Shown here in pieces: positions 1 through 24,910 of a DNA stretch of 24,941 bases; the first letter of the stretch is position 1; each line of letters begins with the position of its first letter. Origin of the DNA: a virus. The position numbers and the translations under genes are program-made. The stretch lies in UHGV virus genome UHGV-0019275. The stretch is one strand, 5' to 3'. Below the pieces are notes generated by a model, which worked only from the letters and a program-made list of their open reading frames with translations, was not told the origin of the DNA and did not search any database.

Positions 1-15
1 GTTGGTTTGGGAGAA
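1..15. repeat. Left crossover site of invertible segment (partial, cut by window edge)
   Basis: Positions 4-15 GGTTTGGGAGAA are identical to the right half-site of the 1855-1880 site read on the opposite strand; central TT at 2-3. Confidence 0.5.
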
Positions 16-510
16 GGCTCTGCATTACCGGTTGGGGTGCCTGTTCCGTGGCCTTCAGCCACTCCGCCAACAGGCTGGCTGAAATGCAATGGTGCGGCTT
101 TTTCTGCTGAAGAATACCCGGAACTGGCAAAGGCTTACCCGACCAATAAATTGCCTGATTTACGCGGTGAATTTATTCGTGGCTGGGATGACGGTCGCGG
201 GATTGATTCTGGTCGTACTTTGCTTAATTGGCAGCCACACACAATTTTGGACCATGCACACTATATGGAATTATGGACAGGGGACGGACTCGCCGCAGGA
301 AGTGCACGGGAAGGAGTAAATCCAGGAATACTGGCTACATACGGTGACGGGGGAATAGTTAAAACAGACGAACCTGGTCTTAAGGTGCCTTCCTCACTAC
401 GAGCTATTAGCTCCCGTAGTGTAAAACGTTTTGGTGAAATTAGTGGAAAGGTAGGTACAGAAACTCGTCCTCGTAACATCGCTTTTAATTATATTGTGAG
501 GGCCGCATGA
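1..510 (+). CDS. Alternative tail-fiber C-terminal variable segment (promoterless, silent in this orientation; would fuse to H after inversion)
   Basis: Frame 1 is open from position 1 (VGLGEGSALPVGVPVPW...); contains a phage tail-collar-like motif (LPDLRGEFIRGWDDGRGIDSGR); stop at 508-510 overlaps the next ATG. Confidence 0.7.
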   Translation, partial: VGLGEGSALPVGVPVPWPSATPPTGWLKCNGAAFSAEEYPELAKAYPTNKLPDLRGEFIRGWDDGRGIDSGRTLLNWQPHTILDHAHYMELWTGDGLAAGSAREGVNPGILATYGDGGIVKTDEPGLKVPSSLRAISSRSVKRFGEISGKVGTETRPRNIAFNYIVRAA

Positions 511-1112
511 TGAATAAAGCTGTATTAAATAGCGAACTCATTGCCATAAAAGTGGGAGATATTACCGTTTATAATTATGATGGTGAAACGCGGGAATATA
601 TTTCTACATCAACTGAATATCTCGCTGTCGGCGTCGGTATCCCGGCATGTTCCTGTCTGGATGCACCAGGTACACATAAAGCTGGTTATGCAATCTGTCG
701 CTCTGTAGATTTAAATTCATGGGAATATGTGCCAGACCATCGCGGTGAAGTTGTCTATAGTACCGAAACGGGAGATACCAAAGAAATCACAGTTCCGGGT
801 GATTACCCTGAAAATACAACCACTATCGCCCCGTTAACGCCATACGATAAATGGGATGGTGAGAAATGGGTGACGGATACCGAGGCACAGCATAGCGCCG
901 TAGTAGATGCAGCAGAAGCACAGCGCCAGTCGCTGATTGATACAGCAATGGCTTCTATCAGTCTGATTCAACTGAAATTACAGGCCGGACGGAATCTGAC
1001 GCAGGCAGAAACCGCCCGACTTAACGCTGCGCTGGATTACATTGACGCGGTGACGGCAACAGATACCAGCACCGCACCGGATGTCATCTGGCCTGAACTG
1101 CCGGAGGCGTAG
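507..1112 (+). CDS. Tail fiber assembly protein (alternative copy)
   Basis: 201 aa; C-terminus (LNAALDYIDAVTATDTSTAPDVIWPELP) is typical of the Tfa/gpG family and parallels the minus-strand copy; ATGA overlap with the upstream fiber segment. Confidence 0.8.
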   Translation: MMNKAVLNSELIAIKVGDITVYNYDGETREYISTSTEYLAVGVGIPACSCLDAPGTHKAGYAICRSVDLNSWEYVPDHRGEVVYSTETGDTKEITVPGDYPENTTTIAPLTPYDKWDGEKWVTDTEAQHSAVVDAAEAQRQSLIDTAMASISLIQLKLQAGRNLTQAETARLNAALDYIDAVTATDTSTAPDVIWPELPEA

Positions 1113-1503
1113 GCCATTCAATATCTGGAGCACTGGAGGGATCAACCAGTTCCAGTGCGTCCAGATAATCCAGCCATAAATTATATTGTGCCAGTTCCTC
1201 ACCTTTCAGGCGACCAATCGCCGCTTTACCTGGCCATTGTCTGCTGTTCATGTGCTCGTTGGCTTCATTAATAAGTTTTCTTTTTTTCAAATCCGCCAAT
1301 GCAATAAGGTTTTCTTTTGATAAAGGTGGTTGCTCTGTCAAAACCGGATATCCCTCCTGATTGCTGACTATTTTCATGCCATTATCCTGACCATCCAGTA
1401 GTAACAGCCATTCATCCGTGGTTATCTCAACAGCATCTGAAGGTGCTTTATTTAAATCGGTAAAAAAACCATTTTCTTTTTGTGAATAGAAGTATCTATC
1501 CAT
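1084..1503 (-). CDS. G: Tail fiber assembly protein (copy expressed with current H)
   Basis: 139 aa; C-terminal motif NLWLDYLDALELVDPSSAPDIEWP; immediately downstream of H; converges on and overlaps the + strand copy by 29 bp. Confidence 0.8.
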   Translation of the reverse strand: MDRYFYSQKENGFFTDLNKAPSDAVEITTDEWLLLLDGQDNGMKIVSNQEGYPVLTEQPPLSKENLIALADLKKRKLINEANEHMNSRQWPGKAAIGRLKGEELAQYNLWLDYLDALELVDPSSAPDIEWPTPPAVQAR

Positions 1504-1506
1504 TTA

Positions 1507-2475
1507 TTAATCTCCAAAAGCAATCCAGTAAGCAAAAGGATTTATTCCTTGCTCAGTCACAGATGACATCAGGGAAAATTGCGATGGTGAAACAGGTAAC
1601 GCTGCAAAACTAACCATTGTTGACACACCTGACCGTGCATTATCGTACGATGCAACAACACAATAATTGGTATTGCTGAAAGATATCGGCAGGGTGATAT
1701 TTACAGGTGAGCCTAATGGTCCTGATGCTGATATTCCCATTTGAATGATGGTTCCATCAGGCAATTTTCTCCAGCGATTAGAACTCGGATTTCTTTTCCA
1801 GGCTGACATATCCGGTATCTGATTTTCTCCTGTGCCCACATCCCTTTTCGCCGCTTCTCCCAAACCAAGGTTTTTAAGAACGTCGCCGGCCAGTCCCGCG
1901 TCAACCATTTCTTTCAGAGCATTAGCGATTAACGGGTACTGCTTGTGTGGATTGGCGGCCTCAACATGTTTTTTCATCAGGTCATCAGCATATCCTTTCA
2001 CCTCGATAATCTTGCCGTCGACATACTGGCGCGTTGCCAGCACGACTGCCGGGTCGATTTTCAGGGTGATTGCCGATGTGCTCGACACAATCAGAATCAT
2101 GCGAATGGTCTGCGTGCGACCGCTTCCCTCCTGCAGTTGTGGCTTGTAGGTCTCCGGACAGTTCGCCACGGCAATCAGAATACCATCATCGTCATAGAGA
2201 CCAATCTCGCGGATCCAGAAACCACCTTCATTCTCGGGAATAATCTGTTCCGCGATAATCTGACTGGTATTGGCCGGGTCAACGGTCAGCAGGTTCAGCG
2301 GCGCGATGCGTTTCTGGTTAATGAGCTTCGTCTGCGCCGTGTCAGGGGTCGGCAACGTACCATTCGCATCACCGACGGCCATCTGCGTCAGGTTGAGTTT
2401 GGTACCGAGTGCCGCCGCGTTCGCCAGCCGCGCCGCGCCCTGATTGGTCAGAATGGCAAAATATTTTGCGGTCAT
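1507..2475 (-). CDS. H: Tail fiber protein H (constant N-terminus plus currently selected variable C-terminus)
   Basis: 322 aa; N-terminus (MAVGD...LPTPD...GGFW.RE.GLYDD.G.LIAVAN...YKP.L.EGSG) matches the P2 gpH N-terminal domain as I remember it; ATG at 2475 overlaps the stop of I. Confidence 0.9.
   Translation of the reverse strand: MTAKYFAILTNQGAARLANAAALGTKLNLTQMAVGDANGTLPTPDTAQTKLINQKRIAPLNLLTVDPANTSQIIAEQIIPENEGGFWIREIGLYDDDGILIAVANCPETYKPQLQEGSGRTQTIRMILIVSSTSAITLKIDPAVVLATRQYVDGKIIEVKGYADDLMKKHVEAANPHKQYPLIANALKEMVDAGLAGDVLKNLGLGEAAKRDVGTGENQIPDMSAWKRNPSSNRWRKLPDGTIIQMGISASGPLGSPVNITLPISFSNTNYCVVASYDNARSGVSTMVSFAALPVSPSQFSLMSSVTEQGINPFAYWIAFGD
1855..1880. repeat. Right crossover site, hix/gix/cix-like 26-bp site inside gene H
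   Basis: Minus-strand reading TTCTTAAAAACC-TT-GGTTTGGGAGAA closely resembles my recollection of hixL (TTCTTGAAAACC-AA-GGTTTTTGATAA); it lies at codons about 199-207 of H, the constant/variable junction. Confidence 0.6.
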
Positions 2476-13817: not shown

Positions 13818-14543
13818 TCAATCGTGAGTGGATATTTGCGAAACAAACTCTTTAACTCCATCTCGTTCAAGTATTTTACTGTCATGGATATACTTTACGA
13901 TATCCCACTCGTAGTATGTACAAGCCATTGCAACTAAAGATATTATTTTTATGTCAGTTAAGTTAACTAATGTTTCATAATAATCTTCCCGTTCAACCCC
14001 GCAATTATCTATCAACTTCACAATCAAATAAAAGCGACGCACCACTGAAAAAATGCAATCATTAGCATCCACTTCACTTAACCACTTTGTTATTACCTCT
14101 TTTTTTACCTTGGCTTTAACTAAAATTACAATATTATCTTCAAGATAAGTTACGGCTGCACCACTTGTAAATTCTTCGACCACCCCGTCAGTTTGTCCAT
14201 CAATATCACCAACTTGAACACAAAACCTTTCAAAGTTAGAATCCTGACATTCAACCAAATGGAAAAATCTCACTTCAAATTTTTTATACTCTTCTAAAGA
14301 TTCTTGCCTTTTTACTTCATCGATCAGGCTGGAATTAGCCTCCCTTTGAAGTTTTATTGAATTTATAAGGAGGTAAATTGTAATAAATGAAAGTATAGGG
14401 TTGACGACACCACCCAAATAATCACCAAACTGCGCCCAAACATCAGTCTTGCTGGATAAATGTCCGTTTACTCCGAAGTTGAAGTAATACAAGGCGCACA
14501 CAGCTACAATCACGCCAGCCGAAGACAGCAACACCTTTCTCAT
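13818..14543 (-). CDS. Cargo protein B: 241-aa protein with two predicted N-terminal TM helices, function unknown (candidate membrane effector)
   Basis: ATG at 14543 overlaps the stop of the upstream gene (ATGA); hydrophobic segments VIVAVCALYYFNF and VVNPILSFITIYLLINSI; AT-rich codon usage unlike the phage backbone; no family recognised. Confidence 0.7.
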   Translation of the reverse strand: MRKVLLSSAGVIVAVCALYYFNFGVNGHLSSKTDVWAQFGDYLGGVVNPILSFITIYLLINSIKLQREANSSLIDEVKRQESLEEYKKFEVRFFHLVECQDSNFERFCVQVGDIDGQTDGVVEEFTSGAAVTYLEDNIVILVKAKVKKEVITKWLSEVDANDCIFSVVRRFYLIVKLIDNCGVEREDYYETLVNLTDIKIISLVAMACTYYEWDIVKYIHDSKILERDGVKEFVSQISTHD

Positions 14544-15358
14544 ACAGTTTCAACCATACGGATTAGATATTTCACCACATCACCACTTTTTACTACAACT
14601 TTGCTAACAGTAAGTTTTAGATATGTGTAGTTATCTTGCCTGCCATTATTATTGTGTAAATTTAATGAGACCAATCTTTTTTGAGCGGCGGGTATAGCCT
14701 TTAAAGGCATGTAAAAACCAAAGGCTACTGTATCATCTTCACCTTCGATAACTAACCTACCATTTCCAGTTCTCGCATTAAATCGAGTAATAACTGCGTT
14801 AATATTAACTTGACCGGGCTTTATTTTTGATTGTGTCAAGTTTGTAGCAGTCATTGTGTCTAACTTTGCTATTCTTTGTTTTCCAGCAGGTTTTTTATAG
14901 TTAAGTTCAACATCAAAGTTTTTTTGAAGATTTATCCTATGCATCCTTACCAAAGGTTGTCTGATACGATCAATAAGTTCATCTTCAATTTCCTCAAGCT
15001 CCTCAATAATTCCTGCAGCTTTTGGAGATAGCTCCTTAGTTTCCAGATATAGAGATTCAGAAATAAAATACCCCATGACTTCCGAGAACACAGAACGGGT
15101 CATTTTTTTTAATTCGGCAGCTAATTCCGGCTCATTAACAATCAAGTCGAAGTTTTGACCATAAGAACTTTTAAAGCTTTGTTTGAGAACCGCTCGCGCA
15201 GGGTTAACATGAGTGCGGCGCTTAATAATTTTTTTTCTGAGTATTGCCTCTGCTAGTATGCATGTCACCTCAGCCGTTCCAGAGAGGGTATCAAGGCCAT
15301 ACTCCATATCAACTTCTTGATCACCACTTTTGATGACAACGTCATAGCTAACTTTCAT
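14540..15358 (-). CDS. Cargo protein A: 272-aa soluble protein, function unknown
   Basis: ORF track starts at GTG 15364, but ATG 15358 has a good SD (AAGGA, 7-nt spacing); no nucleotide-binding or nuclease motif recognised by eye; AT-rich. Confidence 0.7.
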   Translation of the reverse strand: MKVSYDVVIKSGDQEVDMEYGLDTLSGTAEVTCILAEAILRKKIIKRRTHVNPARAVLKQSFKSSYGQNFDLIVNEPELAAELKKMTRSVFSEVMGYFISESLYLETKELSPKAAGIIEELEEIEDELIDRIRQPLVRMHRINLQKNFDVELNYKKPAGKQRIAKLDTMTATNLTQSKIKPGQVNINAVITRFNARTGNGRLVIEGEDDTVAFGFYMPLKAIPAAQKRLVSLNLHNNNGRQDNYTYLKLTVSKVVVKSGDVVKYLIRMVETV

Positions 15359-22185: not shown

Positions 22186-22514
22186 ATGAAATGTAAACTC
22201 TTTTTAGCTCTGCTTCTTACCCTTTCTTTTGGAGCCTCAGCCGCTGAAAAAACACAGGATTTAGATGGCGCTAAGTTTGGTGAGGATTGGCCGTTAACTT
22301 TTGAAAAAGCTACGGTGTCTTGTGTCAACGGTAAATATGCCTTTGTGTACGACAAAGCAACAGATGACCAAATGGTTTTGCGATTGATGGAGTAAAGTCT
22401 GGAAAGCTTGAGGGGAGCAATATTGATACTGTTTGGAAAGATAGCCCGGAGTATGCAGGCGTAAAAATTCCTTTGGATCCTGTAATGGATGCTGCAACAG
22501 CACTTTGGGAATAA
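22186..22514 (+). pseudogene. Small secreted protein gene (DUF2511/YebY-like?) interrupted by a frameshift
   Basis: ATG 22186 with AAGGG SD and signal-peptide-like N-terminus MKCKLFLALLLTLSFGASA; frame 1 stops at 22393-22395, but frame 3 continues as PNGFAIDGVKSGKLEGSNIDTVWKDSPEYAGVKIPLDPVMDAATALWE to 22514; a 1-nt indel near 22366-22370 would join them. Confidence 0.5.
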
Positions 22515-23693: not shown

Positions 23694-24464
23694 TTATGAT
23701 GGTAATTCTATTTCATCATGATCATCAACTTTTTCAAAGTCACCGGCTTTAATTGGGACAGGTTTAAGTTCAATTTCACCGAAACCCATTGGGAAAAGAC
23801 TATGAGTAGTGTCTTGTTTGCAAAAATAAGATACCAAATCAAATCCACAGGAAACTTTTTTTATAAAGTCATCTGATAGTAAAATGCATAAAAAAGATGA
23901 GTCTTCTTTTGTTTCTGTGTTTTTCTTTGTTGTCTTGGGGTGAATTATGTCATTTCTAAGTGACTCAAGGCTTTTAAAATCTTGCCATAGTTTTGAACCT
24001 TTAGGTGAATCACAATTTAAAATAGACGGTAGGATTTTATCTATTTTTTCACTTGTTGGTATATATCGCTCAATTAGCTCTTTGCTATAGGATTCTTTGA
24101 TTCCCTTGGCATTGTTTTTTTCATAAACATAATCATGTGGTATGCATATATTTGCAAAAGACTCAATTGCAGTATACATAGAAATAATGGCCGTCTGAAT
24201 TGATTCAAAGTAATTATAGAGTCTCGGCAGGTCTTTGTCGGAAATTTTAAAGTTTTTATGTTTGGTTTTGTGTATTTTTCCAAAAAGACTTTTATATATA
24301 GAATTGGATTTTGAGAGCTCTTTTTTTGCTGAGGATAAGAATATAGAAACGTTATTTGGGGTGAAAAAACTAACTGTCGCACCAGATAATGTGGCTTTAT
24401 CTGACATTTGCAATGTCAAATTTAAATTTTCTTCTTCTATTCTTGCTATGATTGGTCTCTGCAT
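23694..24464 (-). CDS. Hypothetical protein in AT-rich flank beyond int (start uncertain; ORF-track start 24539 is TTG)
   Basis: Long AT-rich ORF; first ATG at 24464 lacks a good SD; contains RNDIIH (an Rx4H, HEPN-like motif); no family recognised. Confidence 0.4.
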   Translation of the reverse strand: MQRPIIARIEEENLNLTLQMSDKATLSGATVSFFTPNNVSIFLSSAKKELSKSNSIYKSLFGKIHKTKHKNFKISDKDLPRLYNYFESIQTAIISMYTAIESFANICIPHDYVYEKNNAKGIKESYSKELIERYIPTSEKIDKILPSILNCDSPKGSKLWQDFKSLESLRNDIIHPKTTKKNTETKEDSSFLCILLSDDFIKKVSCGFDLVSYFCKQDTTHSLFPMGFGEIELKPVPIKAGDFEKVDDHDEIELPS

Positions 24465-24910
24465 CCTGATATCGATAATCTGGATTGTATCCTTTTTTGA
24501 CACGTTCTTCTCCGTGGATGTTTTGTGGTTAAAAAACAATGCTAATTTTAGGATGTTGGGTTTTTAAAAACTGACAACTACTTGGTAATACCTGATTCGT
24601 GCAAAAATAATTTTGAAGCTAATAATTACATTATATCAGGTAAAAATCATATAATGCGTATCAATATTACAACATATACGGAAATTTTCCAACTACCTCA
24701 TGTGTTAGCGTTTCACTCGGGTATACTAAAGTCTGTGTGGTATAAAGCTTTAAGTGGCGGCAAAGTGGCGGCGGAGGTTGCAGAATATTGCAATTCACTG
24801 CATTAAAAATTAAATTAACTAATTGTTTTTATTATAATTATATGTTTTTTATGTGGTTTTATTGGGAGCGTCTTAACTAAGATTTCGCTTAAGCGACATC
24901 CTGTTAAGAA

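Follow-up and report, generated by a model that had tools for sequence, protein, structure and literature searches.

A tail-fibre inversion switch of a P2-family prophage that flips between clonal Escherichia coli isolates although its own invertase gene is dead

The left end of the viral genome UHGV-0019275 raises the question of how a phage tail-fibre switch can be turned over when no working invertase gene lies beside it. The stretch of DNA that we analysed (24,941 bases, hereafter the window) starts one base ahead of a 15-bp inverted repeat and ends 16 bp past the stop codon of yfiB, at the integrase-side end of a prophage. In principle, its start could stem from a break in the assembly where orientations were mixed; the right junction is contiguous, and our argument does not draw on this. 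An earlier examination of the letters alone, here called the sequence-only reading, had described its first 1,880 bases as a host-range switch of the Gin/Cin/Pin/Hin type and had placed the invertase gene just left of position 1. We found the whole window, with 0 mismatches over 24,941 bases, on the reverse strand of the chromosome of E. coli CH425 (NZ_CM166358.1, 3658824-3683764). The proposed architecture was borne out by the sites, by the modules between them and by related P2-like prophages with the predicted layout; the invertase gene was not found where it had been expected, and the identical genome has only a deleted, frameshifted pin remnant there. Our analysis makes it likely that a switch of the Pin (e14 P-segment) type occupies the left end of the window, with positions 2-1868 as its invertible segment, and that the inversion by a serine invertase is supplied in trans.

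The segment is demonstrated to invert. When CH425 was compared with CH423, an isolate from the same hospital project, a segment of 1.87 kb was exactly reverse-complemented, whereas the flanks were 100% identical over 6 kb on each side; the breakpoints lie inside the 15-bp repeat, and the junctions are exactly reciprocal. CH458 also has the inverted junction (100% over an 805-bp query), and the genome sizes of CH423, CH425 and CH458 lie within 13 bp of each other. The same pattern of inversion was found in a second, independent pair, EC12 and EC15 from Hangzhou. Thus both orientations exist, and they are joined to the flanks by conservative reciprocal junctions, as in an invertase switch. In CH423 the gp53-like module is silent and adjoins the invertase remnant, and the tail fibre H has 371 amino acids (aa), in which PF12571 is followed by Collar. 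This is the alternative fusion that the sequence-only reading had predicted, except that the collar module contributes 168 codons rather than the 170 aa proposed. Homology to the window ends at 1/2 and 1873/1874 in many E. coli genomes and in Salmonella and Klebsiella phages; since these ends coincide with the sites, the cassette appears to be exchanged as a unit bounded by them. Homologous cassettes that adjoin an intact pinE also occur in both orientations across many genomes.

The gene that should drive these inversions is dead. In CH425 only about 400 bp separate the left site from the tail sheath gene, and this stretch holds a 200-bp pin pseudogene in which the N-terminal 67 codons (MFIGYVRVSTNDQ…KLDRLG) are fused to the last 10 or so (…ISTLYKKFP). 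Alignment to intact genes showed that codons ~68-172 are deleted, which removes the E-helix, half of the catalytic domain and the greater part of the helix-turn-helix (HTH) region, and the CH425 copy has an extra 1-nt frameshift near codon 43. Apart from this remnant, no adjacent serine invertase of ~180-200 aa (Resolvase N-terminal domain plus HTH_7) was found between the left site and the sheath gene. Complete genomes of 35 E. coli have the junction of sheath gene, remnant and site, with an identity of at least 97.8%, and it was also found in the phage record vB_EcoM-613R3. The deleted invertase is present in all of the genomes compared for inversion, in the CH as well as the EC pair, and among the remnant-bearing genomes at least 11 have the orientation of the window and at least five the opposite one. 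Given that both orientations occur in near-identical isolates that all carry the deletion, the inversion is later than the deletion. The sequence-only reading had made its case depend on a recombinase gene within about 1 kb to the left; no working gene is there, yet both orientations are found in clonal isolates. Therefore, the switch works with an enzyme from elsewhere: as its own invertase gene has been destroyed by an internal deletion, the inversion is in all likelihood catalysed in trans.

In vB_EcoM-613R3 (ON470592.1, L023 2373-4310), the invertase gene has the same deletion and bears the annotation 'DNA invertase' (104 aa); the two crossover sites are present. The alternative fibre C-termini of this record are both gp53-like (GEAAKR…).

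We also examined the crossover sites themselves. The right site, which had been proposed as a 26-bp element within H at the junction of its constant and variable parts, reads TTCTCCCAAACC-AA-GGTTTTTAAGAA on the plus strand. The left site is cut by the start of the window, and the suspicion that it would prove to be a full site was justified: with the upstream sequence of CH425 added, it has 26 bp and reads TTTTCTAAAAGG-TT-GGTTTGGGAGAA. As had been noticed, the inner half of the right site recurs in inverted orientation; the window has two copies of GGTTTGGGAGAA and no more, 4-15 (+) and 1855-1866 (-), where 0.15 occurrences are expected by chance, and the perfect inverted repeat amounts to 15 bp (2-16 and 1854-1868). 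For scoring, we used the consensus of Hin/Gin/Cin/Pin-type sites, TTNTNNAAAACCNNGGTTTTNNANAA. The right site agrees with it at 17 of the 18 specified positions and the left site at 15 of 18; scores of 15 or more arise 0.01 times per window in shuffled windows, and no further site in the window reaches 13 of 18. The segment is thus bounded by two imperfectly palindromic sites of about 26 bp, inverted with respect to each other and with the same central dinucleotide, TT. The outer half of the left site is degenerate beside the centre, and the invertase-proximal sites of e14 and of the intact P2-like relatives are degenerate at the same place (…AAACG-TT…). hixR of Salmonella resembles the left site in having a degenerate half that ends in GG beside the centre. 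A shufflon, which would have an Rci tyrosine recombinase and more than two sfx sites, was ruled out, since a search of the window together with its left flank gave two sites and no others, and the associated remnant is that of a serine recombinase.

Between the sites, Pfam matches and the layout of open reading frames (ORFs) agree with the two fibre C-termini and two assembly genes in mirror orientation that had been described there (Table 1). The constant N-terminus of H lies outside, and inside are the mirror-oriented C-termini, each with its own chaperone, which is the arrangement of an invertible host-range cassette of the Mu G, P1 C or e14 P type. Both fibre frames read GLGE across the site, as had been claimed (…LKNLGLGEAAKR in H and VGLGEGSALP in the silent frame). 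The present variable part of H has 119-120 codons; the silent collar module (codons at 4-507, stop at 508-510) has neither a start nor a promoter of its own.

Table 1. Positions in the window of the tail-fibre modules, assembly genes and crossover sites
Feature	Position	Strand	Remarks
Tail fibre H, 322 aa	1507-2475	-	PF12571 N-terminus and Gp53-like_C C-terminus
Constant N-terminal part of H, ~203 aa, outside the invertible segment	1869-2475	-	Pfam Phage_tail_fib PF12571, E=9e-63; same sequence whichever way the segment lies
Variable C-terminal module of H, gp53-like, now expressed, stop included	1507-1866	-	Pfam Gp53-like_C PF21882, E=9e-13, residues 237-321
Silent alternative C-terminal module of H, tail-collar type	1-510	+	Pfam Collar PF07484, E=1.2e-15
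TfaE-like tail-fibre assembly gene, 200 aa, silent now, cognate to the collar module	510-1112 (ORF 507/510-1112)	+	Pfam Caudo_TAP, E=2e-31; RefSeq
Tail-fibre assembly gene, 139 aa, expressed now, cognate to the gp53-like module, directly downstream of H	1084-1503	-	Pfam Caudo_TAP, E=3.5e-25
Right crossover site, inside H at the constant/variable junction	1855-1880		(-) reads TTCTTAAAAACC-TT-GGTTTGGGAGAA; crossover dinucleotide 1867-1868
Left crossover site, cut by the window start	1-15		last base of outer half 1, central TT 2-3, inner half GGTTTGGGAGAA 4-15

The two assembly genes converge tail to tail and overlap by 29 bp (1084-1112). Their conserved C-terminal coding regions contain an 18-nt inverted repeat of 83% identity (1031-1048 and 1157-1174), which could in principle be a second, internal substrate for rearrangement or module exchange.

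If the enzyme comes from elsewhere, then it introduces the question of its source. To count pinE-like places per genome, we used a chimeric query that combined a rare anchor from the window with the part of pinE missing from the remnant, and this revealed one further pinE-like locus in each of CH425, CH423 and CH458. Walking along the CH425 chromosome located it in a complete e14-like myovirus prophage at the tRNA-Thr gene thrW. The PinE of this prophage is intact (184 aa, 182 of them identical to K-12 PinE) and adjoins its own P segment, whose sites, CTCTCGAAAACC-TT-GGTTTGGGAGAA and TTCTCCCAAACC-AA-CGTTTATGAAAA, share the inner half and the centre with the sites of the window and with those of K-12 e14. 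CH425 also has a full Rac-like prophage with a PinR, encoded at 2377648-2378238, that is identical to that of K-12 at all 196 residues. PinR is 38% identical to PinE, and no hix-like site was found beside pinR. According to Kirigo et al. (NAR 2025, PMC12529663), the P segment of e14 is inverted by each of PinE, PinQ and PinR; its repeats are given there as TTGGTTTGGGAGAAGG, which is identical to window 2-17. Action of one invertase on the sites of another has also long been known: according to work cited in PMC4272514 and PMC12529663, Fin acts in trans on hix, and PinE acts on the Mu G segment and on the H segment of Salmonella. We favour PinE of the thrW prophage as most likely the acting enzyme, because its own sites share the core and because deletion of pinE in K-12 locks the e14 segment even with PinQ and PinR in the cell. 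The alternative is the PinR encoded by the Rac-like prophage of CH425.

Several other places in CH425 were ruled out as sources. There is no e14 at its usual site, where icd and iraM are direct neighbours; the Qin site is empty, ydfJ and rspB being contiguous, and the ybjL site, which the prophage of N1420 uses, is empty as well. The second place in the chimeric-query count is neither pinR, since pinR and pinE are not similar at the nucleotide level, nor a pinH fragment near ssrA, which matches just pinE nt 124-263 and has no match to the probe. A 576-bp recombinase pseudogene between IS1 copies is PinR-like and has an internal stop.

We made some further observations on these loci. The P segment and pinE of the thrW prophage lie at 1181405-1184225 of the CH425 chromosome, with pinE itself at 1183671-1184225, and the collar-type module there is shortened, the equivalent of window 216-457 being missing. 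The thrW and window crossover cores are identical and about 2.5 Mb apart, so that recombination between the two prophages is conceivable. The PinR-like pseudogene (2543496-2544071, internal stop at codon 20) is flanked by the IS1 copies and by Tn3/IS3 fragments, and adjoins a defence-like island encoding NACHT, SEC-C, ATP-dependent nuclease and UvrD-helicase domain proteins.

Invertases of the Hin/Gin/Cin/Pin class require a cis-acting enhancer bound by Fis, and the remnant may still provide one. It keeps nt 1-201 of the ORF, the region equivalent to the enhancer-bearing N-terminal coding region of hin. Two candidate Fis 15-mers (G-N13-C) were found in it, GTATCAACAAATGAC at ORF nt 22-36 and GCGCAGGATGTGAGC at ORF nt 71-85, with one and two differences from pinE, respectively. 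They are at the positions of the Hin Fis sites, and a literal search for the Hin distal Fis site gave nothing relevant. The proximal candidate is about 95 bp from the centre of the crossover site, as compared with about 100 bp between enhancer and hixL in Hin (PMC3798978). This is suggestive only; the 201 nt that the dead gene has kept at its 5' end probably continue to supply the cis-acting Fis-bound enhancer.

In the mechanism that we propose, a dimer of the invertase would bind each 26-bp site, the sites would synapse and be cleaved at the central TT, and the strands would be exchanged by rotation of the subunits. The inversion would swap the gp53-like C-terminus of H and the 139-aa chaperone for the tail-collar C-terminus and the 200-aa chaperone, and presumably would alter receptor specificity.

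Among the closest known systems is the P segment of K-12 e14 with PinE (stfP-tfaP-tfaE-stfE-pinE), which, like the window, has TT-GGTTTGGGAGAA at both ends, the same order of modules, and collar and gp53-like alternative C-termini; its inversion has been demonstrated with several Pin enzymes (PMC4272514, PMC12529663). Cassettes of the e14 type with tfaE/stfP annotation in other E. coli (e.g. KSC1031) are 94-97% identical to window 1/2-1873/1874, whereas K-12 e14 itself matches only at the start of the collar (94%) and in tfaE (87%). The element in the window differs from e14 in being of a P2/186-type myovirus, with another constant fibre part (PF12571 H), other outer half-sites and a deleted adjacent invertase. 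In other P2-like prophages, an intact invertase gene stands between FI and H; examples are those of E. coli RM8385 and N1420, the loci of enteropathogenic E. coli (EPEC) E2348/69 (Goldberg et al. 2014) and Salmonella Fels-2 with Fin, and inversions of P2-like prophage tail fibres have been observed experimentally in EPEC (PMC4272514). RM8385 and N1420 have the same gene order as the lineage of the window: FI, invertase, site, collar module, tfa, tfa, variable part of H, site, constant part of H, I and J. By Pfam, an invertase of the RM8385/N1420 type has intact Resolvase and HTH_7 domains in 188-197 aa, whereas the lineage of the window has the first 67 codons and the last few. The Mu G/Gin and P1 C/Cin systems follow the same logic, with a constant fibre N-terminus, two C-termini with cognate assembly genes, 26-bp sites, and a Fis enhancer within the invertase gene, at its 5' end; they belong to other phage families, have other cassette sequences, and their invertases are intact and adjacent. 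The Hin/H segment of Salmonella likewise has 26-bp sites, and an enhancer that lies within the sequence encoding the N-terminus, some 100 bp away from the nearest site, but it switches a promoter rather than a coding C-terminus, and hin lies inside the segment. Gin/Cin/Pin-type invertases cross-complement. Inversion of Mu G by PinE, for example, is mentioned in PMC12529663.

We also considered the possibility that sites and mirror modules are a fossil, and that switching ended with the invertase deletion, which locked each lineage. The invertase gene in cis certainly no longer works, its deletion dates back far enough to be common to about 35 genomes and the phage record, and S3, DETEC-S565 and KE40 carry the prophage without a second pinE-like locus (one place each with the chimeric query). 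However, two independent near-identical pairs of isolates with the deletion differ in orientation with perfectly reciprocal junctions, and both sites are intact with an identical 15-bp core; a locked relic is thus improbable. It is even harder to believe that the orientation differences are products of RecA-dependent homologous recombination between short inverted repeats, or artefacts of assembly, and nothing was found in favour of either. The 15 bp shared by the repeats are fewer than RecA recombination usually requires. The repeat has the form of a textbook invertase site, and its two copies agree in the central dinucleotide. The event is seen in two strain pairs that are unrelated and that differ in country and in assembly, and the homologous cassettes beside an intact pinE are found in both orientations as well. 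In addition, 33% of the e14 segments in GenBank are inverted (PMC12529663).

A more serious alternative, although we regard it as rather unlikely, is that PinR of the Rac-like prophage, not PinE, is the main flipper, and that the fibre variant possibly serves the host as a receptor-blocking anti-phage protein, as has been proposed for StfE2 of e14. Besides the identity of the CH425 and K-12 PinR proteins, it is consistent with this that PinQ and PinR are reported to act more strongly than PinE on the P segment of e14 (Kirigo et al., PMC12529663), which shares its repeats with the window, and that the chimeric fibre protein made after inversion blocks adsorption of T2 (PMC12529663). On the other hand, that work relied largely on over-expression, deletion of pinE locked the segment (PMC12529663), PinR is so distant from PinE, and pinR has no hix-like site beside it. 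The lock weakens PinR as an actor at native level; alternatively, it reflects the loss of an enhancer inside pinE. As to a host-serving fibre, the prophage looks complete, and a role in the host range of the virion is the simpler reading.

Several points also weigh against the inversion in trans by PinE that we prefer, or against its details. The inversion is known from fixed differences between sister assemblies, not from within one culture, and the search for a trans invertase covered the chromosome of CH425. The outer half of the left site has GG rather than the consensus CC beside the centre, and it differs at three of 12 positions from the invertase-side half-site of PinE itself. The candidate Fis bases also encode a conserved catalytic motif, and the case for an enhancer in the remnant is built on its position and on Fis-site sequences. 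The locking of the e14 segment in K-12 by a pinE deletion, with PinQ and PinR present (PMC12529663), has to be counted here as well.

The switch works by the known, classical Pin/Gin/Cin principle, and the core finding is confirmatory. What is modestly new is that in a widespread prophage lineage the switch has been orphaned and is nevertheless live, and that this lineage keeps a stub of the invertase gene that probably bears the enhancer. We tentatively suggest, as a possibility that is less likely than the switch itself, that this lineage depends on other prophages for switching: the invertase protein would have been lost, the 5' 200 bp kept under selection for the Fis enhancer, and fibre variation set by whichever Pin-type invertase is co-resident (PinE, PinR/Q, Cin or Gin), linking several prophages in one network.

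A live switch, then, needs no adjacent invertase gene: a lineage spread over 35 complete E. coli genomes and a phage record, with a dead invertase, shows flipping between clonal isolates all the same. Loci of this kind would be missed or misjudged by inverton surveys and annotation pipelines that demand a neighbouring recombinase. The lineage also offers a natural test case for the question of whether invertase genes keep their 5' end on account of the enhancer in it, and for cross-talk among prophage invertases, as has recently been reported of PinQ and PinR on e14.

The prophage that holds the switch is inserted between yfiB and rplS in CH425, according to the RefSeq annotation of the identical record. 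Its RefSeq genes are of the P2 family, with an early region of the 186 type (integrase, CI, CII, Fil, replication endonuclease and a DinI-like protein). The P2-type late gene order and proteins, the 186-type CI/CII/Fil early region and the terminal integrase are those of Peduoviridae (P2/186/PSP3-like), and judging from these genes the prophage is apparently a complete 186/PSP3-like member of that family. Its late region is 96.8% identical to that of the phage record vB_EcoM-613R3 and about 90% identical over 11 kb to those of the Salmonella phages PSP3 and SEN1.

Outside the late region, a frameshifted DUF2511 pseudogene (window 22186-22514; RefSeq, identical record) lies between the genes for the integrase and the CI repressor. 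An AT-rich cargo of two genes (13818-15358, minus strand; ORFs of 241 and 272 aa) is found between the portal gene and the replication region, at the usual accessory/defence hotspot of P2. These ORFs matched no Pfam family and gave a weak, ZorB/MotB-like PADLOC match (E=0.002); a 1.2-kb anchor from this cargo was found at 99.6% identity or more in just 14 E. coli genomes. At the prophage end, a hypothetical ORF of 269 aa (23694-24503, minus strand) adjoins the integrase; it matched no Pfam family and gave a weak HEPN-like PADLOC match (RTasHEPN, E=1e-4), so that the attachment-site end may hold a further gene of the accessory or defence kind.

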